Source of the DNA: Patescibacteria group bacterium | GTDB lineage: Bacteria; Patescibacteriota; Minisyncoccia; UBA6257; GWB1-50-10 | DNA: 64,000 bases | Assembly: GCA_024239035.1 (NCBI GenBank) | Contig: JANBVK010000001.1 | Location: 338,115 to 402,114 of the forward strand | Direction: 5' to 3' | Part shown: one piece after another, positions 24,583 through 46,824 of the stretch | How positions within the stretch are numbered: the stretch's first letter is position 1 | How the letters are laid out: every line of letters begins with the position of its first letter | Translations under genes and position numbers: made by a program | Notes under the pieces: generated by a model | The model's database searches: none | What the model was told of the DNA's origin: nothing | The model's input: only the letters and a program-made list of their open reading frames with translations

Positions 24583-24811
24583 TGTGCCGCGGGAGGGAAT
24601 CTCACTGCTCCCGAGCACATAACGCTTTATGTGCTCGGTGCGCTTTCACAACCCTGCTCCACCGCTGAAGCTAAGGCGGCACACGCGGTCGGTTTTGAAT
24701 AATTTCCAACACGGGGGAACCTCAAACTTTACCCCGACCCCCTTTCGTGTTCAATTCCTTTTCTACAAAGATGAATTTTTGGATACCTCAAGGTATCCAA
24801 AAATTCATATG
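24583..24811 (-). repeat. tRNA-linked non-coding element, copy at tRNA-Phe
   Basis: 19-bp exact direct repeat of the tRNA 3' end (24583-24601 = 24810-24828), hairpin, ggaattgaac inverted T-arm, shared GAAAGGGGGTCGGGG and TCAAAACCGA core. Confidence 0.85.
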
Positions 24812-24883
24812 TGCCGCGGGAGGGAATCGAACCCCCGACGCATAGCTCTTCAAGCTATCGCTCTACCACTGAGCTACCGCGGC
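24812..24883 (-). tRNA. tRNA-Phe (GAA)
   Basis: Cloverleaf; atagc-ttGAAga-gctat; CCA not encoded. Confidence 0.95.
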
Positions 24884-24923
24884 GAGTAGATTCTAGTATA
24901 ATTAAAAAAAACCATTAGTCAAA

Positions 24924-25661
24924 ATGTTTATTCAAATTATAATTGCGAGTTTAACCGGCAGTGTATTCGCACTCGTAGGCGGGATTCTCTTGCTCACCAA
25001 AGAACAATTAGCGAGAAAGGTTTCTTTGCTTCTCGTGAGCTTCGCGGTGGGAAGTCTTTTGGGAGCGGCCTTTTTTGAACTACTACCAGAGGCTTTGAGC
25101 GAGATCGGAGATAAAAGCGCGTTCTCTTTTGTTATCCTGGGACTGCTTACTCTATTCCTTTTTGAGAAATTCTTAAAATGGTACCACTGCCACGACCGAG
25201 AAACGTGCGACATTCACACTTTCTCTGAGGCAGTGCTCTTTGGTGACGCATTACACAATTTTATCGACGGCATTATTATCGCGCTAAGTTTCAGTTTAGG
25301 CGTCCCCGCAGGTATTGCCGCAACTATCGCAGTTTTTTTTCACGAAGTCCCGCAAGAAATTGGCGACTTCGGTGTACTACTCCACGCCGGCTATAGTAAA
25401 AGCAAAATACTTTTATACAACACTCTTACTGCCCTTACCACGCCGGTGGGAGCCGTAGTAGGCTATATTGCGCTTCCTTTAATCTCCGGAGTACTGCCCC
25501 AACTTATTTCATTTGCCGCCGGCACCTTCATCTACATTGCTATTTCAGATTTAATGCCCGAACTCCGCCACAAAACCAAAGGCCCCGACTTTGCCCACTT
25601 ATTCGCAATCCTTCTTGGTCTTCTTGTTTTGTGGGGTATTGGTATACTTTTTCCGGAGTAG
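24924..25661 (+). CDS. ZIP family metal transporter
   Basis: LHNFIDG, HEVPQEIGDF, His-containing loop. Confidence 0.92.
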   Translation: MFIQIIIASLTGSVFALVGGILLLTKEQLARKVSLLLVSFAVGSLLGAAFFELLPEALSEIGDKSAFSFVILGLLTLFLFEKFLKWYHCHDRETCDIHTFSEAVLFGDALHNFIDGIIIALSFSLGVPAGIAATIAVFFHEVPQEIGDFGVLLHAGYSKSKILLYNTLTALTTPVGAVVGYIALPLISGVLPQLISFAAGTFIYIAISDLMPELRHKTKGPDFAHLFAILLGLLVLWGIGILFPE

Positions 25662-25677
25662 AATAAATTTATGATTA

Positions 25678-25906
25678 TGTCTCCCCGCGAGAAAGCAAAC
25701 GTCACTCATATTCACTCACTCCCTCAAACCCCTCGGTTTGAGTAATTCCGCTTCACCCCGCCATACGGCGAGGCAGGCGGGAAAACTCCCCTTGGCCCGG
25801 GCAGGCCGCTTTCCTGACCCCTGCCTACCGGCAGGCAGGTCTTTCACAGTTCGATTCCTCCCAGCATAACAAAATCTGGACAGGCTACTGTCCAGATTTT
25901 GTCTTG
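25678..25906 (-). repeat. tRNA-linked non-coding element, copy at tRNA-Arg(TCT)
   Basis: 19/23 direct repeat of the tRNA 3' end (25678-25700), hairpin, gaggaatcgaac inverted T-arm, core interrupted by REP-like palindromes. Confidence 0.8.
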
Positions 25907-25978
25907 CCTCCCCGCGAGGAATCGAACCCCGATTTAGGGATTAGAAAACCCTCGTTCTATCCGTTGAACTACGGGGAG
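25907..25978 (-). tRNA. tRNA-Arg (TCT)
   Basis: Cloverleaf; acceptor stem ctccccg/cggggag; anticodon TCT. Confidence 0.92.
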
Positions 25979-26030
25979 ATTAAAACGTACGTTGATTCTA
26001 AAGTAAAAATCGGATAATTTAAAGTGGTAA

Positions 26031-26101
26031 CGGGCCGTGGTGTAATGGTAGCACGCTTGCTTTGGGAGCATGTAGTTCGAGTTCGAATCTCGGCGGCCCG
26101 A
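26031..26101 (+). tRNA. tRNA-Pro (TGG)
   Basis: Acceptor stem cgggccg/cggcccg; cttgc-ttTGGga-gcatg. Confidence 0.93.
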
Positions 26102-26102
26102 C

Positions 26103-27080
26103 ATGAAAAGAGATTTAAAATCAGACCAAGATTTTTCGGCCGAGGAGGTTCGGCAAATTTTTCAACTGGCAAAAAAAGTTAAAGAAAAACAGAAAAAGAA
26201 TGAACCGCATGAGTACCTGAAAAATAAATCATTGGCAATGATCTTCCAGAAGCCTTCCACCCGGACGAGAGTTTCCTTTGAGGTAGCAATGACTCATTTG
26301 GGTGGCCATGCTTTGTATCTAAACCCGAACGACCTCCAGCTCTCTCGTGGTGAAACCATTGCCGATACAACCCGAACTCTTTCCCGATATGTTCATGGAA
26401 TTATGGCCCGGGTTTTTAGTCATCAGGACATCCTTGATTTAGCCCGTTTTGCCTCGGTACCCGTGATTAATGGTCTTTCTGATAAGTTTCATCCATGCCA
26501 GAGTTTAACTGATATTTTCACAATTTGGGAAAAACTGAGTTACCCAGAGAAATTTCCTAACGGCTTTACCATTGTTTTTGTCGGTGACGGAAACAACAAT
26601 GTGACCAATTCCCTGCTTCTTCTCTGTGCCCGTTTGGGAATAAATTTCCGAGTCGGCTGTCCTAAAAAGTATCAAACCAAAACCGAGATTTTAGAATTAG
26701 CTAAGGCTGATTTTTCCAAAAGCGGTTCAACGGCGGAAATAACGAACGATGTTAATCAAGCGGTTAAAGGCGCTAATGTTTTATATACCGATGTCTGGAT
26801 TAGTATGGGACGGCAAGATGCTGAGAAAAGAAAAAAGATTTTAGTCCCCTACCAAGTTAATCAGAGGGTCTTGTCTTTAACCAAAAAGAAAACGATGGTA
26901 ATGCATTGTCTGCCGGCTCACCGCGGCGAAGAAATCACCGACGAAGTTATTGATGGACCTAATTCAATTGTTTTCGACCAAGCAGAGAATCGTTTGCATG
27001 TTCAAAAAGCTATCCTCATTTTCTTACTTCAACCTAAGTCTGTGGTTAACGGAGGTTTGGCTACTCCGGCTCCAAAATGA
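26103..27080 (+). CDS. argF: Ornithine carbamoyltransferase
   Basis: STRT, HPCQ, SMG and HCLP motifs. Confidence 0.92.
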   Translation: MKRDLKSDQDFSAEEVRQIFQLAKKVKEKQKKNEPHEYLKNKSLAMIFQKPSTRTRVSFEVAMTHLGGHALYLNPNDLQLSRGETIADTTRTLSRYVHGIMARVFSHQDILDLARFASVPVINGLSDKFHPCQSLTDIFTIWEKLSYPEKFPNGFTIVFVGDGNNNVTNSLLLLCARLGINFRVGCPKKYQTKTEILELAKADFSKSGSTAEITNDVNQAVKGANVLYTDVWISMGRQDAEKRKKILVPYQVNQRVLSLTKKKTMVMHCLPAHRGEEITDEVIDGPNSIVFDQAENRLHVQKAILIFLLQPKSVVNGGLATPAPK

Positions 27081-27562
27081 AAATAATAATTCAAAAATTC
27101 TGGGCGTGGTACGAACGCAACCTCACGCTCAATATTGCTATTGTCGCCCTGCTCTTCACATGGCAGCTCGTTCACCTCTACTGGCTTACGACTGATGTAG
27201 TTACTGTGCGTCTCTTTGGTGTAAGTTTCTTCAACCCAACGGGGGTTATAGAATTTCTCATCATCATTGCAGACTATGTGGAGATCCCCGCCATCATAGG
27301 TGCTTCCTTACTATATATAAGTCTCCTAAGGAAAGGGTTCAGTATAAAGAGCATAGCCATGCTGGTTTTTGTAAACAGTCAGTGGCTCCATATTTTTTGG
27401 ATAACTGATGAATTCATAATCGGACAGTTCGCCGGTGGGTCTCCAATTCTGCCGTTATGGCTTGCGTGGGTAGCAATTGGCGTTGACTATCTTGAACTGC
27501 CTGTCATCTACGATACTCTAAAGAGATTCTTCACCTCAATTTCACCTAAAAGAATTCGATAA
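27077..27562 (+). CDS. Hypothetical membrane protein (about 4 TM)
   Basis: Internal duplication (QLVHLYWLT..DYVEIP and QWLHIFWIT..DYLELP); ATGA overlap with argF. Confidence 0.7.
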   Translation: MKIIIQKFWAWYERNLTLNIAIVALLFTWQLVHLYWLTTDVVTVRLFGVSFFNPTGVIEFLIIIADYVEIPAIIGASLLYISLLRKGFSIKSIAMLVFVNSQWLHIFWITDEFIIGQFAGGSPILPLWLAWVAIGVDYLELPVIYDTLKRFFTSISPKRIR

Positions 27563-27584
27563 AAGTAAGTATCTTTGCTCGGTC

Positions 27585-28196
27585 TTACAGGGACTTATCA
27601 AACTTCTCTATTTTAACCAAAAACTCTTCGTTCAAATCGTTAATTTTCTCCGCACGTTCGTTCACTTCATCGAGGTAATTCTGAACTGCTCTCCGGTCAG
27701 CAAACGAGTTGGTTTGAATAGCCCCTAATAAACTCCCCAAAAAATTATTCAAGTTTTGGGTATAAATAATAAATTCACTGACAAGCGTGATCTCTACCGC
27801 TACTGCTTCATAGGCCAAACGCTGACTCTTCGCTGAGGAAATCGCACTTAAAGATTCCGCGAGTTCCTGTAAATACCCGGATAATTCAAAGGCTTGATTG
27901 TGCGCTTCTGCATTGTTCTGACGCGCTTCTTGAATTAAGGTATGAGCCTGGCTCGCATTACCACTTAAATCTGAAAGATTAACCGCCTTAATTTTCTCAT
28001 TGGTGGCGCCCGTGAGTGCCACAATTTTCTTACTCACCACTGCAGCGTTCTGTCTGGCCGCTAGAAATTCGTTGGGTACCTGAATCGGCTGGTTAAAATC
28101 GAGAAAAAAATAAAGAGCTATAATCAGAACCGCAATTACAATGAGTACAAACCACAGAATTCTACGTTTTACTGCTTTTTTTAGCTTCAATTTCAT
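27585..28196 (-). CDS. Membrane-anchored helical hypothetical protein
   Basis: N-terminal TM and helical body; -10 box 8 nt upstream. Confidence 0.7.
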   Translation of the reverse strand: MKLKLKKAVKRRILWFVLIVIAVLIIALYFFLDFNQPIQVPNEFLAARQNAAVVSKKIVALTGATNEKIKAVNLSDLSGNASQAHTLIQEARQNNAEAHNQAFELSGYLQELAESLSAISSAKSQRLAYEAVAVEITLVSEFIIYTQNLNNFLGSLLGAIQTNSFADRRAVQNYLDEVNERAEKINDLNEEFLVKIEKFDKSL

Positions 28197-28283
28197 ATTA
28201 GCTGATTATATCTCCAACCAAACCCTCAATCAAATAATCGTGTGGTTGCAAAAAAAACATGCTATATGCAAACATTAACGTAG

Positions 28284-28354
28284 GCGGGATTAGTTTAGTG
28301 GTAGAATGCTAGCCTTCCAAGCTGGAGACACGGGTTCGATTCCCGTATTCCGCA
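28284..28354 (+). tRNA. tRNA-Gly (TCC)
   Basis: Cloverleaf; ctagc-ctTCCaa-gctgg. Confidence 0.93.
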
Positions 28355-28544
28355 CAAGAAGATAAACCCGTGGATCTATTCCGCGGGTTTATCTTTTGCG
28401 GGAATCGAACAGGAAAGGGGGTCGGGGAAAAGTTAGGTTTCCCCGTGTCGGAATGAGCGAAGCAGACTCAAAACCGAGGGTTTTGAGGGAGCGATCCTGA
28501 GTTTGTCGAAGGAAAGTGACATTCGCTTCCCGTATCCCGCACAA
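28355..28544 (+). repeat. tRNA-linked non-coding element, copy at tRNA-Gly
   Basis: Hairpin, cgggaatcgaac inverted T-arm, core GAAAGGGGGTCGGGGAAA..TTCCCCGTGTCGGAAT..TCAAAACCGAGGGTTTTGA, 21/23 direct repeat (28522-28544 vs 28335-28357). Confidence 0.88.
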
Positions 28545-28550
28545 CGAATA

Positions 28551-28592
28551 AATCTAACGGCTCAACGACACCTGTCGTTGAGCCGTTAGATT
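28551..28592. repeat. AACGGCTCAACG palindrome, copy 2 (terminator-like)
   Basis: aatctaacggctcaacgaca-cc-tgtcgttgagccgttagatt followed by a T tract. Confidence 0.85.
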
Positions 28593-28706
28593 TTTACAGA
28601 CTTCCCTATTTGCATAGAAAAGACGAATCTGGTAGATTTCTCCTGTAACGTTACAATTAATTTATATATTGTTACATGTGGTTTTCAGTTTATTTTCCCG
28701 AGTTAA

Positions 28707-28731
28707 GAAACATATTACTAACTATATCGTT
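28707..28731 (+). promoter_or_regulatory. ECF-type promoter, probably autoregulatory
   Basis: GAAAC-N16-CGTT immediately upstream of the ECF sigma gene. Confidence 0.6.
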
Positions 28732-28738
28732 CTAGTTT

Positions 28739-29299
28739 ATGAAAGAAGAACAAGAGCTCGTTAAAAAGGCCCAAAAGGGAGAACCTGAGGCTTTTGGTGT
28801 GTTATACGATAAGCACCTTACACCAATTTACCGATTCATCTTCCTAAAAGTTGGAAACAAAGCTGACGCTGAAGATCTCTGCCACCAAGTATTCCTTAGT
28901 GCCTGGAAAAATATTGGGCGCTACCGTTTCCAAGGATTCCCATTCTCAAGCTGGCTCTACAAAATTGCTTCCAACACCGTTATTGACCATTGGAGAACCA
29001 AAAAAAATAATACTAGCATTGAGCTAGTAGCAGAAAGCCTCCTCTCTGAATCACCCAAACTCGATCACCTTCTGGACCAAAAACTCGAAGTACAGCTCAT
29101 TAAAACCTCTTTAATTAAATTAGAATCGGAACAGCAGAACGTTATCATTATGAGATTTGTAGACGAGCTCACTAACAAAGAGATTGCACAAATTCTCGGC
29201 AAAAGCGAAGGGGCAATACGTGTGATCCAACACCGAGCTATCAAACGACTCAGAAAACATATAAGCGACCATAATCATCACGAAACCGAAAACGCATGA
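28739..29299 (+). CDS. ECF RNA polymerase sigma-70 factor
   Basis: Region 2 (DAEDL..VF..AW, FSSWLYKIA.N) and region 4.2 (EIAQILGKSEGAIR). Confidence 0.92.
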   Translation: MKEEQELVKKAQKGEPEAFGVLYDKHLTPIYRFIFLKVGNKADAEDLCHQVFLSAWKNIGRYRFQGFPFSSWLYKIASNTVIDHWRTKKNNTSIELVAESLLSESPKLDHLLDQKLEVQLIKTSLIKLESEQQNVIIMRFVDELTNKEIAQILGKSEGAIRVIQHRAIKRLRKHISDHNHHETENA

Positions 29300-29760
29300 A
29301 TACAAACAAAGAAATTATTACCCAGTTAAAAAGGCTCCGTTATATAGAGCCTGATTCTGCGTTTGCCAGAGGTTCCCGAAGTATAGTTCTCTCAGTAAAC
29401 CATGGACGAACTCGTTCCCAAATTTGGTTGTGGACTAGCGCCACGGCAGTAACTTTCTTGTTCCTTGCTGCAGTCATATCTTATAACGCACTATTCTCAT
29501 CTAAGCCTGTTCTTTCCTCTTCTTTTAATCCTGAAAGTCTCGAACAAGAGTTCAGCAACCTCACTATTAACATCCAACTTGAAGAGATTAAATACCAACA
29601 AAGCGTGAATCAAGCCATTGCATCGGCTCTAAACGAAATACAAAACACTTATCCAAGACACCTCAATAATTCACTCCTAGAATCGGAGGAGGCGGGTATT
29701 AATCTTGATGAGTCAATCAACCCATACATTGATGAGCTTCTAGAGAAAGCTATATTTTAG
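29296..29760 (+). CDS. Putative single-pass anti-sigma factor
   Basis: Overlaps the sigma gene stop; one central TM. Confidence 0.6.
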   Translation: MNTNKEIITQLKRLRYIEPDSAFARGSRSIVLSVNHGRTRSQIWLWTSATAVTFLFLAAVISYNALFSSKPVLSSSFNPESLEQEFSNLTINIQLEEIKYQQSVNQAIASALNEIQNTYPRHLNNSLLESEEAGINLDESINPYIDELLEKAIF

Positions 29761-29779
29761 AATGTTTCAGACCTAAGCC

Positions 29780-30700
29780 ATGAAAAAATTCTTAGTTGCT
29801 TTCATAGTACTGGGTATTAGCTATTCACTTCTGGCTGCTTCTGCAAACGCCCAGTCAGCCGCAGTACAGGAAGCTTTTGAAAATGTTGAAGACCAAGTAG
29901 AGGACTTGGTTATTGCTAAAGACGAAAATATACCCGACGATTTGGCGTTCAGAATTGAAACTTTTAAAGAGGTGGTTGATTTTTCTATTCTTGAGGCGAA
30001 AGACTTAAAAATTAAATTATTAAGCTTGGACCAAATTGAAGAAGACGCCTCTTCTTGGAAAGAAGAAAGAATCAAAGATCTAAACCGAGCCCTAGTCCAC
30101 TACGACGAACAAAAACAATTAATAGACGATAGCGAAGTAATCGACCTGGAAACCATTAAGAATATTGCGAGTGATTTTAAGGACTGGCGGGAACAAACGT
30201 ATCTCCCCGCCGCCGAGCAAGTTAATGAGTTCCTCCTGGTTGAACAAGAACAAAACGCGGTTAATATTGCCGAAAGGCGTTGGCAAAGAATTGATAAAGA
30301 CATAACAAAACTACAAGAAGCTAACCTTAAAGGCGTCTCAGGTCTGCGAGAACTTTTAGATAAGGCTGGAGAACTAATAGAGGAAAGTGATGAGATAAAC
30401 CAAGCTGCTGAAAATCTTTTCTTTGATCGCTATATCTACACGAACTCTTCTACAAGTTCATCCACCGCCACAACTACTGAAATTACTGACGAGACCGAAG
30501 ACCAAACTATCATTCATACCGAGGAAGTATCTGATGAACCCGACTCTACGGGTACTGAGGCTGACGCAACGGACGTAGAGTCTGTGCCACCACCCCCTTT
30601 GTCAATAAAGGATTTGGTTAGGACATCCTTAACAAAAATTAAGGAGGCCTATCGGATCTTTATTGAAATGAGTAATTCGGTGAGGGAGTTGCTCAGTTAG
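29780..30700 (+). CDS. Secreted acidic helical protein
   Basis: Signal peptide ending ANA; Ser/Thr-rich linker. Confidence 0.7.
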   Translation: MKKFLVAFIVLGISYSLLAASANAQSAAVQEAFENVEDQVEDLVIAKDENIPDDLAFRIETFKEVVDFSILEAKDLKIKLLSLDQIEEDASSWKEERIKDLNRALVHYDEQKQLIDDSEVIDLETIKNIASDFKDWREQTYLPAAEQVNEFLLVEQEQNAVNIAERRWQRIDKDITKLQEANLKGVSGLRELLDKAGELIEESDEINQAAENLFFDRYIYTNSSTSSSTATTTEITDETEDQTIIHTEEVSDEPDSTGTEADATDVESVPPPPLSIKDLVRTSLTKIKEAYRIFIEMSNSVRELLS

Positions 30701-30732
30701 TAATCCACGGCTTTTTTGCGCGTGGAAATAAC

Positions 30733-30769
30733 AAACCCCTCCGACTAGAATTTAGTCGGAGGGGTTTGT
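30733..30769. terminator. Bidirectional terminator hairpin between convergent genes
   Basis: aaacccctccgacta-gaatt-tagtcggaggggttt. Confidence 0.75.
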
Positions 30770-30793
30770 GTTTCTCCAAAACCTGGAGATGCC

Positions 30794-31069
30794 TTACCTA
30801 ACTGCTTCTTTAAAAACCTTACCTGCCTTAAATTTAGGAGCAGTCGAAGCAGCAATTTGAATTTTTTCACCGGTTTTAGGGTTAACACCCATCCGAGCGG
30901 CCCGTTTCACGACTCTAAATATACCGAATCCAGTAATTGCGACTTCTTCGCCTCGACTGAGTGTCTTTTGAATGGTGTCGAAAACAGCCTCAACCGCATC
31001 CTGGGCCTGCTTTTTAGAACCGAGGTCCGCGGCCTGCTGAACAGCTTCTACAAGACCATCTTTTCTCAT
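30794..31069 (-). CDS. hup: DNA-binding protein HU
   Basis: GFGIF..RAARMGVNPKTGEKIQI..PKFKAG. Confidence 0.95.
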   Translation of the reverse strand: MRKDGLVEAVQQAADLGSKKQAQDAVEAVFDTIQKTLSRGEEVAITGFGIFRVVKRAARMGVNPKTGEKIQIAASTAPKFKAGKVFKEAVR

Positions 31070-31235
31070 AATTATTTATTAGTTATTTTAGGTATTTAGC
31101 CACTTGGCATCCAGTGACCATCTCATACTCAATCGACCTTTAAAAATCGCTTTTATTATAGCACATTCGCCATTGCCCACGTATTTTACCACTTTTATAT
31201 CCTTTTAAGCTAGTTTAATCCAGTTTAATCACTTG

Positions 31236-32765
31236 CTACTTCGCATATTCAACGGCTTTCACTTCCCTAATAACAGTAACCTTAATTTCACCGGGATATT
31301 GCACATCGGATTGGATTTTATTGGCAATTTGTTTTGCAAGCTGCAACGCACCAAAGTCATCTATCTTCTCGGGGACAACAAATACCCGTACTTCCCGCCC
31401 CGCTGAAACCGCATAGGCGTCTTTTATCCCTTTAAAGGTCTTTACCGTGTTCTCTATATCTTCGAGGCGCCTCAAATACTTCTCTAAAGTATCACGACGA
31501 GCCCCAGGTCTAGCAGCGGAAATTACATCAGCTGCCGCTACAATATAAGACTCAGGGGTAGAGAAAGGATACTCCTCATGATGAGATTCCATAGCTTTTA
31601 TAACAGCCTCATCAATACCATATTTCTTCAACAGTTTTCTTCCGAGCTCAACGTGCGTTCCTTCAACCTCGTGGTCAATTGCCTTGCCTATATCATGAAG
31701 AAGAGCTCCTTTCTTGACAACGTCTACATTAACTCCCAATTCACTGGCGATCATCCCTGAAATGTGAGTCATCTCAACTGAGTGGGTTAATACATTCTGC
31801 CCATAGCTAGTACGGTAGTTCAACCTTCCTAAAAGACGAATTATCTCTTTTGGTAAATCTAAGACCCCCACCTCATAGACGGCTTCCTCACCAATGCGCT
31901 CTATCTGATTATCTAGCTCCTGTCTTGCTTCCTCGACTTTCTCTTCAATCTTAGCCGGTTGAATCCGACCATCTTGAATCAGCTTCTCTAGGGCCAGCTT
32001 CGCCACTTCCCGACGAAGTGGGTCAAAGGAAGATAAAAGCAAGCTCTCCGGCGTCTCATCAATAACAATCTCAACTCCAGTCAGACGCTCAAATGTTCTT
32101 ATATTCCTGCCTTCCCGACCAATAATCTTTCCCTTAATTTCTTCATTAGGAAGATGAACTACGCTTGTAGTAATATCGGCAATGCTACTACGAGCGTAGC
32201 GCTGTATCGCTGAAGTGATCACTTCTAAGCCTTTCGCTTCCACTTCTTTTCTTTTCTCTTTCTCTAACCGGCTAATCACATCAACTAATTCTTGCCGATT
32301 AGTTTGCTCTAATTCCTCAATCAACTTGGCTTTTGCCTCATCTCGAGTCAACCCTGATACTTTCTCCAGTTCCTCCCCAATTTTCTTCTGAAGCTCTCTA
32401 GCTTGTTCCTCAATTTTTTGAACTCTCTCTAATTCTTTTTTACACTCCGTCTCTCTAGATCCAACTTCACTTTTTTGCTTTTCAAGAACGTCCTCTTTTT
32501 TAAGAAATCTCTCTTCTAGATGGCGTAATTCCTGCTTCCGTTCGCGTTCTTCCTTCTGAGCCTCGGCAATAATGGAGGCAGCTTTATCTTTTGCCGCCAA
32601 GACTACCTCTTTAGCTTTTGAATCAGCAGAAGTTAGCTCTTCTTGAGCTTTGCGTTCTAAAGAGGATGCTTGTTGAAGAGCAAGCGACCGCCTTAGAAAA
32701 TATCCGAGCACTATTCCTAGAATTAATAAGCCTCCTGCCAACCAAAAATTGATTCCTAAAATCAT
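31236..32765 (-). CDS. rny: Ribonuclease Y
   Basis: N-terminal TM, coiled coil, KH domain (IIGREGRNIR), HD domain (LLHDIGK). Confidence 0.95.
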   Translation of the reverse strand: MILGINFWLAGGLLILGIVLGYFLRRSLALQQASSLERKAQEELTSADSKAKEVVLAAKDKAASIIAEAQKEERERKQELRHLEERFLKKEDVLEKQKSEVGSRETECKKELERVQKIEEQARELQKKIGEELEKVSGLTRDEAKAKLIEELEQTNRQELVDVISRLEKEKRKEVEAKGLEVITSAIQRYARSSIADITTSVVHLPNEEIKGKIIGREGRNIRTFERLTGVEIVIDETPESLLLSSFDPLRREVAKLALEKLIQDGRIQPAKIEEKVEEARQELDNQIERIGEEAVYEVGVLDLPKEIIRLLGRLNYRTSYGQNVLTHSVEMTHISGMIASELGVNVDVVKKGALLHDIGKAIDHEVEGTHVELGRKLLKKYGIDEAVIKAMESHHEEYPFSTPESYIVAAADVISAARPGARRDTLEKYLRRLEDIENTVKTFKGIKDAYAVSAGREVRVFVVPEKIDDFGALQLAKQIANKIQSDVQYPGEIKVTVIREVKAVEYAK

Positions 32766-33018
32766 AAAAGTATATTAGTTTATTTTTTGCCCCCTCTAGA
32801 AAATCAAAATGAACCTTTCCCTTATTAGAAAGGTTTTCAAAAATACGAGTTGTAGTTCTCACGATATCAATTAGTTTCATTAATTTTCCAAAGCGGGGTT
32901 TACGACGTTTTATTTATAAGTTTGTATTAATTATCGTAACGTGCCTTCTTTAAAATGTCAAGCCCGGATACTTCAGATAGTAGTGATGAAACGCTTCTTT
33001 TGATGCTAGAATTAATCC

Positions 33019-34575: not shown

Positions 34576-34622
34576 GTCTTGCCTGCCGGCGGGCAGGTGT
34601 CCCTAGATTGCAGATAGAGGTA

Positions 34623-34650
34623 TTGACAGGCTTAAAATTAGGATTATAGT
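34623..34650 (+). promoter_or_regulatory. Sigma-70 promoter for the candidate ncRNA
   Basis: TTGACA-N16-TATAGT with no ORF of 60 aa or more downstream. Confidence 0.7.
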
Positions 34651-34679
34651 GGATTTATCATCGCACATTGACATTTTCC

Positions 34680-35091: not shown

Positions 35092-35098
35092 CCAGCAC

Positions 35099-35129
35099 AA
35101 CTCCCGCGGCAACCAGCCCGGGAGTTTTT
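35099..35129 (+). terminator. Intrinsic terminator
   Basis: aactcccg...cgggagttttt. Confidence 0.75.
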
Positions 35130-35192
35130 CATTTCTGGTACAATAAAAATAAAGTAAAGTAAGGGTTTTTCTTCTATGAACTAGACTCTTTT

Positions 35193-35778: not shown

Positions 35779-35857
35779 GCTTGGATTAGCAAACCCGAGC
35801 GCGGGGTCATAGATACTGTTTTTCTAGAAAACATTGCCCTCTCCCAGTACAGGAAAG

Positions 35858-37468: not shown

Positions 37469-37476
37469 AATACTGC

Positions 37477-37560
37477 GCCGAGGTGGTGAAATTGGCAGAC
37501 ACGCAGCGTTCAGGACGCTGTGCTCGCAAGGGCTTGTGGGTTCAAATCCCACCCTCGGCA
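37477..37560 (+). tRNA. tRNA-Leu (CAG)
   Basis: cagcg-ttCAGga-cgctg; long variable arm. Confidence 0.95.
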
Positions 37561-37652
37561 CATAGAGAAGTATGTTCACTGAAGAAATCTCAAAATATTA
37601 CAAATTTGAAAAAATAAAATTACCAATTACTAGTTACTAATTTACTAAAATT

Positions 37653-39437: not shown

Positions 39438-39441
39438 ATTT

Positions 39442-40431
39442 ATGGCAAAACCAGTTCTTGTATCAGGTATTCAACCTACAGGAAAGCTCCACTTAGGTAA
39501 CTATTTGGGTGCGCTTAAAAATTTTGTTGAACTCCAAAATTCCGGTAAATACCTGTGTTACTTTTCTATTGTTGACTACCACTCACTATCCGAGGTTTTC
39601 AGCCCAAAAGAGAAATCAAAGCAAATATTAGAATTAATTGCCGACTTTCTGGCAGCGGGTTTGGACCCCCAAAAATCTACTATCTTTGTCCAATCAGCAG
39701 TCCCGGCCCACACCGAGCTAGCTTGGGTTCTGAGTACGGTTACTCCCTTTGGTGAACTGCGTCGGATGACACAGTTTAAAGAGAAATCAGAGGACACCCC
39801 TCAAAACATAAATGTGGGTCTTTTTAACTACCCGGTACTCATGAGCGCCGATATAATTATCTATAATGCTAAATTTGTCCCAGTCGGCGATGACCAACTC
39901 CAACACCTAGAATTCACTAGAATGATTACAAGAAAGTTTAACAAGAAATTTGGTAAAACCTTCACAGAACCGAAACCTCTTCTTACTAACGTCCCCCGTC
40001 TCATGAGCCTAGATAATCCAAGTAAAAAAATGTCCAAATCTAGGCCGGGAGGATGTCTATTTATTGACGACACACCTACCACAATAAGAGAAAAAATCAA
40101 AAGAGCCGTCACTGACTCCGGCTCCGAAGTTAAATACAGTCCCAAAAACAAACCAGCAATAAGTAACCTGCTTCTCATTTATTCTGCAATGAGCGGCAAA
40201 TCGGTAAAAACCCTTGAGAAATCCTACAAAGGAAAGGGCTATGCTGAATTCAAAAAAGATTTAGCCGAAGTTGTCGTAAAAGCCCTCACGCCGTTCCAAA
40301 AGAAAAAGAAAGCATTAAAAACTCAAAGCTTAAAACTCAAAGCTACGCTAACTGCCGGCAATAAAAAGGCTAATACTGTCGCCTCAAAAAAACTCCTTGA
40401 AGTCAAAAAGAAAATCGGTTTGATCCTATAA
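39442..40431 (+). CDS. trpS: Tryptophanyl-tRNA synthetase
   Basis: SGIQPTGKLHLGNY, VPVGDDQ, KMSKS. Confidence 0.96.
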   Translation: MAKPVLVSGIQPTGKLHLGNYLGALKNFVELQNSGKYLCYFSIVDYHSLSEVFSPKEKSKQILELIADFLAAGLDPQKSTIFVQSAVPAHTELAWVLSTVTPFGELRRMTQFKEKSEDTPQNINVGLFNYPVLMSADIIIYNAKFVPVGDDQLQHLEFTRMITRKFNKKFGKTFTEPKPLLTNVPRLMSLDNPSKKMSKSRPGGCLFIDDTPTTIREKIKRAVTDSGSEVKYSPKNKPAISNLLLIYSAMSGKSVKTLEKSYKGKGYAEFKKDLAEVVVKALTPFQKKKKALKTQSLKLKATLTAGNKKANTVASKKLLEVKKKIGLIL

Positions 40432-40439
40432 CCTTTATA

Positions 40440-40472
40440 AACGGCTCAACGGCGTCGAGTCGTTGAGCCGTT
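40440..40472. repeat. AACGGCTCAACG palindrome, copy 3 (between convergent trpS and ileS)
   Basis: aacggctcaacg-gcgtcgagt-cgttgagccgtt. Confidence 0.85.
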
Positions 40473-40551
40473 CGGTTTAGATGTAGACAAAATCTGGTTT
40501 GTGAGGTCGTGTCTTCACTCCGTCCACATATGTGGATAAACTGAGGACACG

Positions 40552-43500
40552 TTATTTCAGTTTTCGGAGCGCGAGCCAAATTGGCCACGTATTAAGTTTT
40601 GTTTCCAGTTCAATATCAAATTTACTCGATCGCTTAAACTCTATTGTCTTCGCATTAACTTCCTTTTTCACTAATTTCTCATTTGTCTCAACAACGTGGT
40701 GTAACTCCTGCGGCAGCTCAACCATCAAAACAACCTTGTCTTTTGGCTCAAACCCCGCATCCTGCCGCAGACCCTGAACTAAACGAACAAATTCCCGAAG
40801 CCAGCCTTCTTCTTTCAGCTCGTGAGTAAGAGTAGTATCCAGTTTAACTTCTTCTTCTAAATTTTTATCGAAGATGACGTTTTTAATATTAACTTCGTCT
40901 TTAATAATTTCGTAAATACCAAAACTTTTAGAAAACTCTATTGAAGTACTTACTTTCGAAAGAGGTTGACGAACCTTAATGCCTTCTTCGGCTCTTTTAG
41001 CTAAAATAATACTTGAAAGGCGACGGGCGTCTTCCATCTCTTTTAATAATTTTTTATTAATCATCTTTTTATTTGCCTTTGGCCAATCCTCCAAGTGAAC
41101 CGACAATTTACGATTCGCGGCCAGTGATTTATAGAGCGCTTCTGCAAAAAACGGCACAAAAGGCGCAAGAAGCTTACTGACCTCCAAAAGTACGTATCCG
41201 AGTGTCTCTGATGCTGCTCGATAATCTTGTTGGCTCTCCGGTCTTTGAAATCTTCTTCTGGACCGCCGAATATACCACCTAGAGAGATCGTTTACCAAGA
41301 CCTCTATCGCCCGGGCAGCACTTCCCACTTCATACCGTTCTAAGTCCCCGGTCACTTCCAGAATAGTCTCATTAAGCCGGGATAAAACCCAAACATCGAG
41401 TACGTTGGTTGTTTTTGGCGCGCCATCGGGCGACCTCTTATCTGTATATGTATTAAAGAAAACAAAAGAATTATAAGTTAGTGAAATAAATTGCCGCAAC
41501 ACCTTAGCTAAATCCCTCTCATCAAAACGTTTAGGTTCGCTTGGGGAATTTACTGTGTAAAAATACCAACGAATAGCATCGGCACCGTACTTTGAAATCT
41601 CTATCCACGGATCGACAACATTCCCTTTTGATTTTGACATTTTCTGGCCACGCTTATCCAAAACTAATCCATGAGAAATCACGTTCTTGTACGATGTGCC
41701 ACGCCCCAAAAGAACCGAGACCGCTAAGAGCGTGTAAAACCATCCACGAGTTTGATCTAATCCTTCAACAATGTAATCAGCCGGGAAATCAATCCGCCCG
41801 CTGGCAGACTTTTCAAAAGGATAATGCGCTTGCGCAAACGGCATCGCTCCCGAATCAAACCAGGCATCTATCACTTCTTTAACCCGTTCCATATTTCCCT
41901 TACATTGAGTACTAGGACAAGAAAAACGGACCTCATCTATGTAGGGTCTATGAAGATCTAATTCACCAATCTCGTTGCGAGGGATATTCCTGAAATGCAC
42001 CGGATAAGCTTTACTCTTTTCAGGATAAAAGCCTTCCGGTAAACCTTTTTTTGCGCTCATTTCACTTTCTCTGACCAAACCAGTCATCAAAGAGTACATC
42101 ATCCATAAAGGATCGCCGTGACTTACAATAACAATGGTCTTATTTTTATATTTCTTCTCTGTAAACTTTATAAAATCAAAAATTCTCGCACTCAAATCGT
42201 TCAATGACTCGCCATTGGGAGCTGGCCGCGTAAAGCGCTCGTGGGGATAATTAAAATAACGATGATATTCCTCTATACTTTTATCGTTAAAATCACCGAC
42301 ATCTAACTCTCTCAAACGGACATCATAGACAACCTTAAGGTCGGTTTTGTGAGCAATTATCCCAGCTGTTTCTTTGGTACGAAGTAAATCCGAAGAGAAA
42401 ATCAAATCAATCTTTTTCTTTTTCAACTCCCGGCCAAGCCTACGCGCTTGATCTTCACCGATAGTAGTAAGAGGATATTTCTTCTTCTCCGGCCAACAAC
42501 TATTGATGCCTTCTAAATTATTTTTAGCTTCTGCGTGCCGCACAAAAATGTACTGATTTGTGCTCTCCCCCCAAAGTTTTTCAAGTCTTTCAATACTTCC
42601 TACCACCTCCGTCTTACCGCATTTCTTACACTCCCAGATAGGTAAAGGCGTGCCCCAGTAACGCTCTCGGGAAAAAGCCCAATCCTTCGCCTCTCTCAAC
42701 CATTCGCCAAATCGGCCTTCTTTAATGTGTTTAGGTATCCAGTTAATCTTTTTATTGGCGGCCAGAAGCTTGGGCCGTAGCTTACTCATTGCGATAAACC
42801 ACGAATCGCGGGCGTAGTAAATAAGAGCCGTGTCACAACGCCAGCAAAATGGGTAGTCGTGAGTGTATTGCTCGGTTTTTAGCTTATAGCTTTTAGCTTC
42901 TAGGTGGTGTAAAATTTTCTCTTCGGTTTTTTTATCCTTGACGTATAGACCGGATAAACCTGGAACTTCTTTAGTAAATTTTCCGTTCTCGTCAACTGTG
43001 TGATACTGGGGTAATCCCACTTTTTTCCCGAGATTATAATCATCCTCTCCGTACATCACTGCCGTATGCACCACACCGGTTCCTTCAGCCGTCGTCACAA
43101 ATTCAGCTGGATAGACTTTATAAGAATTTTTATGTTTTAGCGGCTTTACGTTAAAAAGCGGTTCGTATTCCCAACCAACAAGATCTTTCCCGTTGAAGGT
43201 TTCTTCTTCATTCCCTTTATAGGAATCTTCATCAAGAATAGAGAGCCGATCCTCCGCAAGAATAAGAATTTCCCCGTTTTTCATGCGCACTCTCTTGTAG
43301 AGAATATCTTTACCGACTGCAAGCGCCACGTTGCCAGGTAGAGTCCAGGGAGTTGTTGTCCAAGCGAGAATGTATACTTTTCCTGACTTTATTTGCGGAT
43401 CAGATCCCCTACGAACGCGGAACTTCACATATACCGAGCTGTCAGTAGTCTCTTTATAGCCCTGAGCGAGCTCATGAGAAGAAAGAGCCGTTCCGCAGCG

Positions 43501-44046
43501 GGGACACCACGGTAACACTTTGTGCCCCTTATAAAGCAGTTTTTTCTTTGAAATCTGTGAGATTATCCACCAGAGCGTCTCAATATATTTTGACTCGTAA
43601 GTAATATAGGGATTCTCCATGTCCAGCCAGAAACCGATGCGTTCGGTGAGCTTCTCCCATTCGTCTTTGTATTTCCATACCGATTCTTTGCACTTTCGGT
43701 TAAACTTGGCAATGCCGAATTTTTCAATTTCCTGCTTTGATTTAAGACCCAATTCCTTCTCAACTTCTATTTCAACCGGCAAACCATGCGTGTCCCATCC
43801 GCCGCGCCGAGGCACAAAAAAACCGGACATCGTTTTGTAACGAAGGATAATATCCTTAAACGAGCGGGCTAAAACGTGGTGAATCCCCGGCCGGCCATTC
43901 GCTGTGGGAGGCCCTTCGTAAAATACGAATTTCTTACTCTTCACTCTCTGCGCAACTGCTTTATCAAAAATTCTGTTAGTTTTCCAGAATTCCAAAACTT
44001 TCTCTTCTATTTCGGGTAGTGAAAACTTTTTGAGCTGTTGAAGCAT
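40552..44046 (-). CDS. ileS: Isoleucyl-tRNA synthetase (type 2-like) with inserted histidine-phosphatase domain
   Basis: GPPTANG..HH, WTTTPWTLP, GTGVVH, EGLDQTRGWF, KMSKS; internal RHAE...SHG domain. Confidence 0.93.
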   Translation of the reverse strand: MLQQLKKFSLPEIEEKVLEFWKTNRIFDKAVAQRVKSKKFVFYEGPPTANGRPGIHHVLARSFKDIILRYKTMSGFFVPRRGGWDTHGLPVEIEVEKELGLKSKQEIEKFGIAKFNRKCKESVWKYKDEWEKLTERIGFWLDMENPYITYESKYIETLWWIISQISKKKLLYKGHKVLPWCPRCGTALSSHELAQGYKETTDSSVYVKFRVRRGSDPQIKSGKVYILAWTTTPWTLPGNVALAVGKDILYKRVRMKNGEILILAEDRLSILDEDSYKGNEEETFNGKDLVGWEYEPLFNVKPLKHKNSYKVYPAEFVTTAEGTGVVHTAVMYGEDDYNLGKKVGLPQYHTVDENGKFTKEVPGLSGLYVKDKKTEEKILHHLEAKSYKLKTEQYTHDYPFCWRCDTALIYYARDSWFIAMSKLRPKLLAANKKINWIPKHIKEGRFGEWLREAKDWAFSRERYWGTPLPIWECKKCGKTEVVGSIERLEKLWGESTNQYIFVRHAEAKNNLEGINSCWPEKKKYPLTTIGEDQARRLGRELKKKKIDLIFSSDLLRTKETAGIIAHKTDLKVVYDVRLRELDVGDFNDKSIEEYHRYFNYPHERFTRPAPNGESLNDLSARIFDFIKFTEKKYKNKTIVIVSHGDPLWMMYSLMTGLVRESEMSAKKGLPEGFYPEKSKAYPVHFRNIPRNEIGELDLHRPYIDEVRFSCPSTQCKGNMERVKEVIDAWFDSGAMPFAQAHYPFEKSASGRIDFPADYIVEGLDQTRGWFYTLLAVSVLLGRGTSYKNVISHGLVLDKRGQKMSKSKGNVVDPWIEISKYGADAIRWYFYTVNSPSEPKRFDERDLAKVLRQFISLTYNSFVFFNTYTDKRSPDGAPKTTNVLDVWVLSRLNETILEVTGDLERYEVGSAARAIEVLVNDLSRWYIRRSRRRFQRPESQQDYRAASETLGYVLLEVSKLLAPFVPFFAEALYKSLAANRKLSVHLEDWPKANKKMINKKLLKEMEDARRLSSIILAKRAEEGIKVRQPLSKVSTSIEFSKSFGIYEIIKDEVNIKNVIFDKNLEEEVKLDTTLTHELKEEGWLREFVRLVQGLRQDAGFEPKDKVVLMVELPQELHHVVETNEKLVKKEVNAKTIEFKRSSKFDIELETKLNTWPIWLALRKLK

Positions 44047-44107
44047 AATCTTAATTCTATAAATTATCTTGCTAAAATTAAACCTGACCCTTGGTCTCTC
44101 TATTTCT

Positions 44108-45811
44108 TTACATCTGTTTAGGAGCAGAAATTCCTAAGAGAGAAAGGCCGCTTGTAAAAGTTATAGAAAGAGCGCGCGCAAGAGCAACTCGAAACGCTTT
44201 CTTTCCCGTACTTTCTTCCTGCATAACCGGATGTGAATGATAAAACTCATTAGCTTTCTGCGAAAGATTGTGCAAATAGAAAGCTAAAGTATTCGGTGTC
44301 CGTTTCTCAAGCGCTGATTCTATAACTTCCGGAAACCTCAAGAGAGCGACAAGCAATAATCTTTCGGTATCATCTAACGTCTCGCCCTCAGACATTTTGT
44401 TCGGTGTCTTTCCAATCTTTCGTAGAATGCTTAAAAAACGTGCATTAGTGTACTGGATATACGGACCAGTATCACCCTCAAAGGATAATGCTTCCTCACG
44501 GTTAAAGATTATATTTGATTTCCGATGATGAGATAAATCAAAGTATTTCAAGGCTCCAATACCCACTTCTTTTGCAACTTCATCTGCGTTCTCTAAATCA
44601 GGATTCTTCTCCTGAATCACTTCTCTAGCCCGAGCAACCACGTCATCTAGCACGCTCTGAAGAGAAATAACCGAGCCTTTACGAGTACTCATTGCCCCTT
44701 CAGACAAAGACATGAAACCGAACTCAATATGCTCACTCTCGTTGACGCCTTTAAGACCTAAAAGTTCGGAAACTTTAAACAACTGTTTGAAATGATGCAA
44801 TTGCCGCACGTCCACCACGTAGAGATTTTTCCAAAAATCCAGCTCTCTTTGCCAATATTTGAGAGTAGCAAGGTCACGAAGCAGATACGTCGAGGCTCCA
44901 TCAGATTTAGTAAGCACGGCTTCATCTAAGCCGTAATCTAAAAGATCTACCACAACCGCTCCATCGTCCGTCTTTTTAGCTACTTTTTTTCGTAAGGACA
45001 GTTCTACAATTTCGGGCATCAAATCCTCATACGCGCTTTCGCTTCTATGCTTTTCGAAAGGCAGAAGATTTAGTTGGCTTATAATCTCCCGGAATTTTTC
45101 CATTGACACATCCACCATCCACTGCCAGATTTCTCTGTTTTCTTTATCACCTCGTTCTAATTTTGCAAATTCTTCTTTCGCCTTCTTGCGGCGTTCAGGA
45201 TCGTCTTCAATAAGGCGGGTTTCATCAATATAAAGCTGATTTAATTTTTCAACCGGGTTCTGCTTTACTTCGTCTTTTTCCTGCTCGCTCAATGACTTAT
45301 AACCGTAGATTAAAATACCAAATTGTGTTCCCCAGTCACCAATATGGGTATCTGATACAACCGTATACCCCTCGGTAATAAACATTCGCTTCAGAGCGTC
45401 ACCTATCACCGCTGAACGCAGGTGACCCACATGAGGAATTTTTGCAACGTTCGGTTGAAAATATTCCACCCGTACCGTTTTTCCACGCCCTATATCGCTT
45501 TTTCCCCACTGACTAGTTTTCTTAAGTAGATGATTTAGGTTAGAAAGAAGTGCTTTGTCGTGAATCCAAAAATTAATAAAGCCTGGGGGCACCACTTCAA
45601 TTTTCTTGAAAAATTCCTCAGGCGCTTTTTGCCTCAGATGAGAAATAATATCCTCGGCAACGCTCACGGGGGTTTTCCCCAAGTGCTCCGCCAGCTGAAA
45701 AGCGACGTTTGTCGAATAATGGCCGAATGTTTCCTTTTCGGGAACAGTTACGTTAATCTCAGTATTTCTAGGGACAACTTTCTTAAGATAAGTAATAATT
45801 TTATCTCGCAT
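44108..45811 (-). CDS. argS: Arginyl-tRNA synthetase
   Basis: PNVAKIPHVGHLRS, GDWGTQFG, MSTRKG, GDTGPYIQY. Confidence 0.95.
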   Translation of the reverse strand: MRDKIITYLKKVVPRNTEINVTVPEKETFGHYSTNVAFQLAEHLGKTPVSVAEDIISHLRQKAPEEFFKKIEVVPPGFINFWIHDKALLSNLNHLLKKTSQWGKSDIGRGKTVRVEYFQPNVAKIPHVGHLRSAVIGDALKRMFITEGYTVVSDTHIGDWGTQFGILIYGYKSLSEQEKDEVKQNPVEKLNQLYIDETRLIEDDPERRKKAKEEFAKLERGDKENREIWQWMVDVSMEKFREIISQLNLLPFEKHRSESAYEDLMPEIVELSLRKKVAKKTDDGAVVVDLLDYGLDEAVLTKSDGASTYLLRDLATLKYWQRELDFWKNLYVVDVRQLHHFKQLFKVSELLGLKGVNESEHIEFGFMSLSEGAMSTRKGSVISLQSVLDDVVARAREVIQEKNPDLENADEVAKEVGIGALKYFDLSHHRKSNIIFNREEALSFEGDTGPYIQYTNARFLSILRKIGKTPNKMSEGETLDDTERLLLVALLRFPEVIESALEKRTPNTLAFYLHNLSQKANEFYHSHPVMQEESTGKKAFRVALARALSITFTSGLSLLGISAPKQM

Positions 45812-45868
45812 ATTATAATTGTAACCTAAGAAGGTGTTTTCGGGTAAATAAGGGATTAGAATTAATAT

Positions 45869-46306
45869 ATGAGTACATTAGCCATAAATAAACGAGCAAC
45901 GTTTGATTATGAGACTCTAGAAAAGTTCACTGCGGGCATTGAGCTTACCGGGCATGAAACAAAGTCTATGAAGCTCGGCCACCCAAACATTGTGGGCGCA
46001 CATGCAATTATACGAGATAACGAGGTTTTTTCGGTTAATATAGATATTCCTTCTTTCCAACCCTTAAATGCTCCGAGTAACTACGATCCCCTGCGCACTA
46101 GAAAATTACTCCTGAGGCGCAGTGAGATAAAGTATCTCGCCGGTAAATTGCTGAGCGGCTTGACGCTCGTACCCTTGAAACTCTATACTGACCACGGATT
46201 AGTAAAGGTAGAAATTGCGCTGGCACGCGGCCGCAAAAAACACGACAAACGCGAGCTCATTAAAAAACGAGAAAGCGATAGAGAGATAAGAAAGTTCAAA
46301 AAGTGA
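45869..46306 (+). CDS. smpB: SsrA-binding protein
   Basis: NKRATFDY, AGIELTGHETKS, RTRKLLL, GRKKHDKRE. Confidence 0.95.
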   Translation: MSTLAINKRATFDYETLEKFTAGIELTGHETKSMKLGHPNIVGAHAIIRDNEVFSVNIDIPSFQPLNAPSNYDPLRTRKLLLRRSEIKYLAGKLLSGLTLVPLKLYTDHGLVKVEIALARGRKKHDKRELIKKRESDREIRKFKK

Positions 46307-46308
46307 TA

Positions 46309-46619
46309 GGGGATGTTAGGCTTTGACAGAATACATTCTGGTAAATTGCAGGTCGAGCTGATTGACTCGTAAATCCGATCAAACTAATTTAACTGCTAAT
46401 AAAAACGCAGCTCCAGCTCTAGCATACGCTTAAGCTGGTATCGGTCCTTGATATCTAATATAGGTTAACCGGTATAATACATTAGATTCGCTTCTGGCAA
46501 AACGGTCCGATAGTCAGAAGTTAAATTATAGGATCACTTCTGTTTTCGTAAGAAAACTAAGCTTGTAGATTATCTACTCAGAAATATTTTGGACACCGGT
46601 TCAACTCCGGTCATCTCCA
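46309..46619 (+). ncRNA. ssrA: tmRNA, tag peptide ANKNAAPALAYA*
   Basis: 5' GGGGATG pairs with 3' CATCTCC(A); T-arm ccggttcaactccgg; tag ORF at 46395-46433; directly follows smpB. Confidence 0.93.
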
Positions 46620-46824
46620 CAAACAAAAAATACTCCGCCTTGTGCGGGGTATTTTTTGTTTTCTGGAATGGTCACGGAGTTGAACAAGCGGAGGGGGTCG
46701 GGGAACCACGATTGGTTCCCCGTGTTGGAATGAGTCCGCCATCTGGCGGACGGATTCAAAACCGAGGGTTTTGAAAGAGCTCCGACGTAAAGTTGGAGCG
46801 ATGTGAAACTCCTCATCTCCACAA
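46620..46824 (+). repeat. tRNA-linked non-coding element, copy at tmRNA
   Basis: Hairpin, cggagttgaac inverted T-arm, core GGGGGTCGGGGAA..TTCCCCGTGTTGGAAT..TCAAAACCGAGGGTTTTGA, direct repeat tcatctccacaa (46813-46824). Confidence 0.88.

Follow-up and report, generated by a model that had tools for sequence, protein, structure and literature searches.

A protein-less mobile mini-element with a probable antisense guide at tRNA, tmRNA and protein-gene ends in Patescibacteria

Several described systems place mobile DNA at gene ends or choose a target by base pairing. Genomic islands at tRNA and tmRNA genes (tyrosine integrase; Islander) also use the ends of rpsI and rplL, according to the available parts of PMC4383910 and PMC5704250. 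IS608 reads its target through a guide located 5' of a hairpin, with the geometry given in the accessible text of PMC5934647. In the attP site of phage CTX, two inverted att copies pair in single-stranded DNA (as outlined in the available text of PMC4246890). The window analysed here is a stretch of 64,000 nucleotides (nt) from a Patescibacteria group bacterium (assembly GCA_024239035.1, contig JANBVK010000001.1, positions 338,115 to 402,114 of the forward strand). It contains four copies of a mini-element whose family is real and mobile and apparently undescribed. The preferred reading, to which a probability of about 0.55 is given, is that this is a protein-less mobile element of ~180 bases that inserts at gene ends and supplies a replacement end, moving as single-stranded DNA with an antisense guide and an enzyme acting in trans that would cut ~13 nt from the conserved core.

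The four host genes in the window are tRNA-Phe, tRNA-Arg(tct), tRNA-Gly(tcc) and tmRNA (3' ends at 24811, 25906, 28355 and 46620 as called by ARAGORN). Behind each of them come, in this order, a spacer hairpin, an inverted copy of the T-arm, a conserved core and a second copy of the gene's 3' end in direct orientation. The upstream target or gene end is referred to as T, the downstream displaced copy as T', the inverted copy as the guide and the core hairpins as P2 and P3, so that the layout is T - spacer - guide - core - right end - T'. The initial annotation, made from the sequence alone, had reported these positions and this layout, and both agree with ARAGORN and with matching. Its direct-repeat identities were recomputed with the same values (19/19, 19/23, 21/23 and 12/12), and the 19-mer that it described as shared has exactly two occurrences, at 28468 and 46756. 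The guides match their own host genes at 10, 12, 12 and 11 of 12 positions (Phe, Arg, Gly and tmRNA, respectively). The remaining four tRNAs in the window have no copy. A nucleotide profile and P2 pair counts were used in place of a full covariance model; the core profile gave E-values down to 1e-15 for the copies, and nothing below E 2.1 in the reversed genome.

The host genome (G000, 795 kb) contains 14 copies, ten at tRNA or tmRNA genes (two of them partial) and four in protein genes. Contigs C1-C3 were treated as host; C4-C12 carry foreign-looking genes (an archaeal-type RadA, phage genes and an IS110 fragment) and are probable bin contamination. The protein-gene copies are found at the 3' ends of rpsI and rplK and, in reverse orientation, at the 5' ends of rplK and fusA (names that we assume from the translated sequence). 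At the reverse-orientation copies, a dead start fragment lies upstream and a new start downstream. The exact core pattern occurs in at least 63 of 301 genomes of the class and in at least 5 of 237 genomes from other classes of the phylum; read backwards, it is absent from the 301 class genomes and from the 237 others. The 323 listed loci and the host genome gave 248 non-redundant matches with the second hairpin, after 75 of the 323 raw matches were dropped because this second motif was absent. Sufficient upstream DNA for scoring was present in 233 of the 248. All family counts are drawn among the matches listed, and copies from related genomes are not independent. Phage and plasmid collections held no match to the element. 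Eleven pattern matches in IMG/VR all lack P3, and pattern matches in genome contigs from outside the candidate phyla radiation (CPR) also lack it and were dropped; several of these resemble the antisense of what are presumably group II intron 5' ends.

A tRNA or tmRNA lies on the same strand no more than 300 nt upstream of 122 of the 233 scorable copies (38 anticodons, one unassigned, plus tmRNA), versus 5 and 4 in opposite-strand controls. The linkage to tRNA 3' ends that the initial annotation proposed to tabulate is therefore present for these copies and fails for the other 111, which have no called tRNA upstream. The latter include tRNA and tmRNA ends missed by ARAGORN, decayed copies, copies at palindromic repeats and protein-gene ends. 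Genus g58 (L163-L202) has many copies without a gene target, located among CCTCCC-GGGAGG palindromic repeats. The non-tRNA targets are the ends (first or last codons) of conserved protein genes, which from their sequence we take to be rpsI, rpsG, rplL, rplK, fusA, lepA, dnaK, dnaX, gap, murC, mraY, ftsH, deoC and a polX/PHP gene. Because many protein-gene-end copies have the same guide layout, the targeting signal is the guide and not the T-arm, and the specificity for tRNAs and their T-arms that was first suggested is not supported.

The guide keeps a fixed register and follows its target at the level of single bases. It is detected in 102 of 124 tRNA-linked copies, and in 97 of these 102 it ends 5-9 nt before the core. 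Identity between guide and own host, compared with hosts of other isotypes, is 0.93 versus 0.60 at tRNA position 57, 0.90 versus 0.30 at position 59 and 0.83 versus 0.32 at position 63, and the match fades by position 68. Among non-tRNA copies, an anchored match score of at least 10 was reached by 49 of 111, compared with 1% of 300 shuffled pairings. At 117 positions under the guide where T and T' differ, the guide agrees with T at 106, with T' at 6 and with neither at 5. The bases matched include some that lie 5' of the junction and are not carried by the element (host positions 57 and 59), and at the dnaX site of one genus the guide follows each host's synonymous codon in four of five genomes.

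The identity between T and T' is ~0.5 at offsets 5-12 from the core and 0.82-0.98 at offsets 13-28, which puts the junction ~13 nt from the core, at about tRNA position 59/60. Of 19 right ends of the common type, GTGAGA/GTGAAA, 18 agree with the host at position 57. The distance from T to T' has a median of 182 nt (5-95% range 135-274, maximum 411) in the 135 of 154 guide-bearing copies in which both ends were mapped. None of these 135 holds a cargo gene between its ends, in keeping with the earlier proposal of a non-autonomous element, and no open reading frame (ORF) enclosed by a distant repeat was seen in the remaining 19.

Empty and filled alleles coexist at orthologous sites among relatives, which bears out the suggestion that the element is mobile. 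In genus g107, one of five genomes is filled. For tRNA-Gln(ctg) in genus g58, ten sites were located, of which three carry the main family, six a sister family (one carries both) and two are empty. Among 12 genomes of the host's family with a located tmRNA end, three are filled, seven are without the element and two have a guide but no core. An empty genome, G181, is 99% identical to its filled relative across 400 nt upstream, with no upstream co-conversion. Over the 45 bases beyond the junction, G181 matches T' at 43 and T at only 27; the element thus brought a foreign gene end and displaced that of the host. An empty and filled pair at dnaX agrees (T' 23/25, T 19/25), both of its alleles coming from one bin with 4% contamination. 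A foreign origin of the 3' part of T, with T' as the end that the host formerly used, is therefore shown in one close pair and supported in a second. In protein genes, differences between T and T' are often synonymous (fusA, 10 synonymous and 2 nonsynonymous; dnaK, 7 and 3; gap, 7 and 2; rplL, 4 and 0). In tRNA copies, T and T' are identical in 55 of 79. Contigs of two sequencing runs, which offer assembled sequence only, showed no empty-site or circle joint, which speaks neither for nor against the model.

Retargeting is common. The nearest neighbour by element body lies at a different target for 76 of 82 tRNA copies, and the claim that the element enters unrelated tRNAs with host-matched ends is supported. 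The body of the Phe copy in the window differs from that at tRNA-Leu(tag) in the same genome by two substitutions and a 34-nt insert, and the fusA copy of this genome retains a tRNA-type right end, GCGAGAT. Locus L186 is an exact head-to-tail dimer that includes the predicted circle junction. In three other loci, T' is followed by a copy of the spacer, guide and linker without a core. Together, the dimer and the three core-less repeats suggest repeated entry and loss. Scars consisting of target, spacer, guide and linker without a core, and ending within the purine linker, are also present in the host genome at tRNA-Trp (C1:39760), tRNA-Ala(cgc) (C1:534937) and tRNA-Leu(gag) (C3:6914), and likewise in L062, L077 and L191. 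Serine-recombinase islands occur at tRNA ends bearing the mini-element (L140/L355, in G262:C19, and L004), where they split the target from the guide or provide a displaced fragment that is used as a target.

The strand bias of the element suggests that single-stranded DNA is what folds. Five of nine P2 pairs show compensatory changes (the covariation score of P2 was reached in 0 of 500 shuffles, four pairs being fixed by the search pattern), and P3 is formed by several pair types. On the element strand, G.T exceeds A.C and G.A exceeds C.T, and only 8 of 986 P2 pairs are G.T. The P3 loops are dominated by G-N-G triloops (GAG/GTG), a type of loop that is stable in DNA, and 47 GNRA tetraloops are also found among them. 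For the sequence GCGAAGC, the element strand has 83 occurrences and its complement two, against 23 and 19 in the flanks. According to the available text of PMC13037366, mini-hairpins of the GCGAAGC type are far more stable in DNA than in RNA, occur at single-stranded DNA priming sites and adopt their structure with GNA triloops only; the G-N-G loops therefore lend weaker support to single-stranded DNA. From the GCGAAGC bias and the triloops, the structured RNA considered initially is judged less likely than folded single-stranded DNA, although the GNRA tetraloops and the G.T-rich spacer hairpins are also compatible with RNA. Since it is the plus strand that folds, a reading modelled on IS608 with the minus strand was given up. 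A self-splicing intron was rejected too, because T by itself provides a complete, working end and some copies are in reverse orientation.

The model proposed for this mini-element is DNA-guided and would combine IS200/IS605-like strand transfer with island-like gene-end replacement. The plus strand would fold as single-stranded DNA and be excised as a circle in which the right end is joined to T. This circle would re-insert through strand transfer at a site paired with the guide. The polarity would be that of IS200/IS605, with the target lying 5' of the left cut, a look-alike within the element 5' of the right cut and the guide 5' of the hairpin; cutting and joining, ~13 nt from the core, would fall to an enzyme provided in trans. 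After the jump, T, T' and the guide would be re-matched by gene conversion or fold-back copying, with selection for a working gene.

A number of observations weigh against this model. No guide is detectable in 22 of 124 tRNA copies and in over half of the non-tRNA copies, repeat (junction) starts are bimodal, and the spacer hairpins are RNA-like in their G.T content (43/1109). In the dnaX pair the gene bodies are alike at only 77 of 100 positions, compared with 94 of 100 in the T' flank, which hints at a longer homologous co-transfer. The pooled unambiguous set of protein genes is not clearly synonymous, with 52 synonymous and 58 nonsynonymous differences at 21 loci, misframed and tail positions included. 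Among the 24 tRNA copies in which T and T' are not identical, T is the better partner of the host 5' strand in 22 (seven nested loci being left out), so that either the end in use is re-matched or insertions with an ill-fitting end are lost. This contradicts a simple rule that T is foreign and makes a re-matching step necessary. The early idea of ends rewritten for each target accordingly survives for tRNA jumps between isotypes and is set aside for protein genes, in which the upstream copy is a foreign end brought along. Finally, no enzyme gene lies between the ends of the 135 mapped copies, no neighbour is enriched among 1869 clustered ORFs, the host contigs with 14 copies lack Y1, serine recombinase, reverse transcriptase (RT) and IS110 genes, and Y1 is found in 14 of 38 core-positive and 11 of 42 core-negative genomes (core-negative denoting no exact pattern match, so that sister families may be present).

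The search for a partner enzyme found none. An HUH/Y1-type enzyme and a small Slx1-like GIY-YIG nuclease working with host repair are possible partners, each proposed tentatively and with equal weight. Some other enzyme is slightly less probable, and a host Xer-type recombinase is doubtful. None of 30 Y1 loci has a full core. Serine recombinases are not enriched (11 of 38 core-positive versus 24 of 42 core-negative genomes), and the full core occurs at one of 25 serine-recombinase loci, a case of an island that entered the mini-element. The neighbour clusters consist of housekeeping genes and four loci with a small GIY-YIG gene. GIY-YIG proteins are encoded by 79 of 80 genomes (UvrC included), and their co-occurrence is therefore uninformative. 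The host contigs encode an Xer-like protein, a prophage-type integrase and two small GIY-YIG proteins. The latter two genes lie directly behind the two tRNA-Gln genes of the genome (C1:98348-98566 and C1:318146-318373). Palindromic repeats flank both genes, and a GTGAGA/GCGAGA-like right end comes after each. In relatives, 5 of 30 small GIY-YIG genes also come right after a tRNA; none of these five has its own repeat. The sole IS110 match is on C7, one of the contigs with foreign-looking genes, and IS110 is absent among the neighbours.

The order of spacer, guide, core and repeat holds in all four window copies; the uniformity claimed at first does not extend to the Arg copy, which is degenerate, or to the Phe copy, which carries an insert. 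The GTGA reported before the direct repeat is present and is merely one among several right ends. The Phe copy (minus strand) has T (tRNA position 53 to the 3' end) at 24811..24832 with a probable junction near 24825, the spacer hairpin at 24761..24810, the guide (antisense to the T-arm, 10/12) at 24749..24760 and the core (P2, GTGKNGGA, P3) at 24645..24741, within whose second hairpin the 34-nt insert occupies 24655-24688. Its right hairpin, GTGA right end and T' (19/19) are at 24583..24644. A contig of run X1 is without this insert, perhaps because the assembly merged the Phe and Leu copies. The Arg copy (minus strand) has T at 25906..25927, the spacer hairpin at 25861-25905, the guide (12/12) at 25849..25860 and T' (19/23) at 25678..25700; a 20-nt palindromic mini-repeat separates guide from core, the first stem is altered, and mini-repeat and degenerate core together span 25722..25838. 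The Gly copy (plus strand) has T at 28334..28355, the spacer hairpin at 28356-28398, the guide (12/12) at 28399..28410, the core at 28418..28487 and T' (21/23) at 28521..28544. It is the sole scored case in which T' pairs better than T with the host 5' strand. The tmRNA copy (plus strand) has T at 46599..46620, a spacer hairpin followed by the guide (11/12) at 46674..46685, a core with an additional hairpin between P2 and P3 at 46694..46775 and the GTGAAA right end with T' (12/12) at 46802..46824. Small palindromic repeat insertions are held in element loops at 25819-25838, 24655-24688 and 46725-46745. A recurring AACGGCTCAACG...CGTTGAGCCGTT hairpin at 28555-28596 is of a kind found directly after tRNA ends or displaced ends; it is also present behind tRNA-Leu(tag), tRNA-Ala(tgc) and the Gln(ctg) GIY-YIG gene.

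Seventeen tRNA loci have a guide and no standard core, and most of these hold other or permuted cores followed by T'. A second family (nine occurrences in sampled loci) shares the sequence GGGGTCG. At least five sister cores follow the same grammar of target, spacer, guide, core and repeat (L154, L212, L229, L005, L008, L409-L414; L254, L052; L060, L395; L327; L056; L138), one of them in tandem arrays at tRNA-Gln(ctg). A circularly permuted core, with P2 as the outer stem, occurs in the host genome at C1:4301-4385, at the end of C1 and at C2:95-180, and also in L206. It lies on the opposite strand, within spacer hairpins behind tRNA-Tyr and tRNA-Ser(gga). Main and sister cores have in common the guide-target hairpin and the T-loop junction.

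The alternative that survives best, although unlikely, is integration through a folded attP, as in phage CTX. Here the inverted copy would be structural, rebuilding a double-stranded att site on single-stranded DNA that a host tyrosine recombinase or repair would exchange. The paired inverted att copies of CTX attP (available text of PMC4246890) offer a precedent, and the genome has an Xer-like gene. The guide matches T rather than the displaced host copy; over positions 53-60 a perfect match is seen for T in 50 of 79 copies and for T' in 1 of 79, and GTGAGA gives tandem G.A mismatches resembling a designed bubble. Xer, however, needs dif, whereas these targets (38 anticodons and many protein genes) have no common sequence, and the guide's match to uncarried host bases at positions 57 and 59, and to dnaX codons in four of five genomes, also argues against a purely structural role.

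An RNA-guided system is improbable as well and ranks next. A transcript of guide and core would scaffold a recombinase or nickase acting in trans, in the style of bridge RNA or omega RNA, with spread by that enzyme or by homing. A 5' guide followed by a conserved, covarying scaffold would suit such a role, as would the 47 GNRA tetraloops and the excess of G.T over A.C on one strand, and a foreign, synonymously changed gene end is known from homing, as might be the possible co-transfer in the dnaX pair. The perfect guide match kept by 50 of 79 filled alleles stands against it, since a cutting guide would target itself, as do the triloops and GCGAAGC sequences that favour DNA and the lack of upstream co-conversion in the 99% identical pair. 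Rfam recognizes only tRNA and tmRNA in the window and gives no credible match over the cores of seven loci, which agrees with the initial view that this is not a described family, and the one IS110 match is on a foreign-looking contig. No description of the family was found in the literature at title and abstract level, supplements and subscription journals being outside that scope.

That the copies are relics of integrase islands (CIME-like att scars) decorated with hairpin mini-repeats, the inverted copy being kept as a terminator or RNA-processing hairpin, is very unlikely and already largely refuted. The T-loop junction and gene-end restoration are classic for islands, with rpsI and rplL as known targets (available parts of PMC4383910 and PMC5704250), and some sites look long-lived (dnaX is filled in six genomes of one genus). 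A single core conserved across all targets, the uniform length, copies in reverse orientation at gene 5' ends and antisense to the host transcript, recent retargeting and the absence of serine-recombinase enrichment all speak against relics. A fixed regulatory RNA module at tRNA 3' ends would explain the same-strand position behind tRNAs (122 of 233 versus 5 and 4) and can be dismissed, because orthologous sites are found empty and protein-gene and reverse-orientation copies exist.

The element shows that streamlined CPR genomes swap the ends of essential genes (tRNAs, rpsI, rplK, fusA and dnaX) between lineages, an exchange that gives rise to spurious starts and tRNA fragments in annotation. 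A long guide in IS608 is the product of engineering (available text of PMC5934647). As a long DNA guide appears to be natural here, the partner enzyme would be a candidate compact programmable integrase. A broader proposal, held at somewhat less than even odds, is programmable DNA-guided integration, in which one CPR enzyme would insert several mini-element families at gene ends matching a 10-20-nt guide, leaving the gene unharmed and acquiring new guides by fold-back copying of the new target.

Among known systems, homing endonuclease ORFs are inserted close to the end of a gene, for which they provide an in-frame substitute of diverged sequence; the mini-element, unlike these, contains no ORF and keeps a perfect guide match in the filled allele. 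PATEs are protein-less derivatives of the IS200/IS605 family. The mini-element shares with IS200/IS605, PATE and REP-RAYT elements its strand-specific hairpins, whose stem has the guide on its 5' side, and lacks their linked or co-occurring Y1 and their fixed 4-5 nt target without a carried copy. As with IS608 in the available text of PMC5934647, a guide 5' of the hairpin in a folded single strand would base-pair with the target, the right end carries the element's own cleavage-site look-alike, and a change of guide would re-program the target. The natural guide, in contrast, is 8-20 nt long and spans both sides of the junction, versus 4 nt in IS608; moreover, unlike IS200/IS605, the mini-element carries a replacement gene end, no TnpA was found in its host contigs, and sequence similarity was neither seen nor tested. 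Were the partner a Y1 transposase, the element would rank as an IS200/IS605 variant.

Integrase islands and CIMEs (as described in the available parts of PMC4383910 and PMC5704250) likewise split a target that is restored from the element, leave a displaced fragment, use a T-loop subsite, target rpsI and rplL ends and form tandem arrays. The mini-element has the displaced fragment and restored gene. Unlike islands, it is ~180 bp long, has a fixed-register internal antisense copy, holds no integrase between its ends (135 of 154 copies have T' within 411 nt) and places one core at dozens of unrelated targets in place of one target per lineage (76 of 82 nearest neighbours differ in target). CTX attP(+) and other Xer-exploiting elements resemble it in having a direct, an inverted and a far direct att copy, no integrase of their own and a single-stranded fold (PMC4246890, available text). 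The mini-element differs in its arbitrary targets, T-loops and coding ends without a common sequence, dif-like site or Xer arms, and has no phage genes. The IS110/IS1111 bridge RNA (cf. PMC11208160) also sets nucleic-acid-programmed target choice beside a conserved scaffold; the mini-element, by contrast, has a single contiguous guide, DNA-type folding signals, gene-end replacement and no recombinase linked to it or in its host, the one match being on contig C7. CPR serine-recombinase tRNA elements differ in their enzyme, which is missing from the host and not enriched in core-positive genomes (11/38 versus 24/42), and retroelements and Rfam families in that there is no RT in the host and no Rfam match. 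In every family compared, the defining feature of membership is one that the mini-element lacks, and it combines two tricks that are otherwise separate, the replacement of gene ends as in islands and the choice of a target by base pairing.

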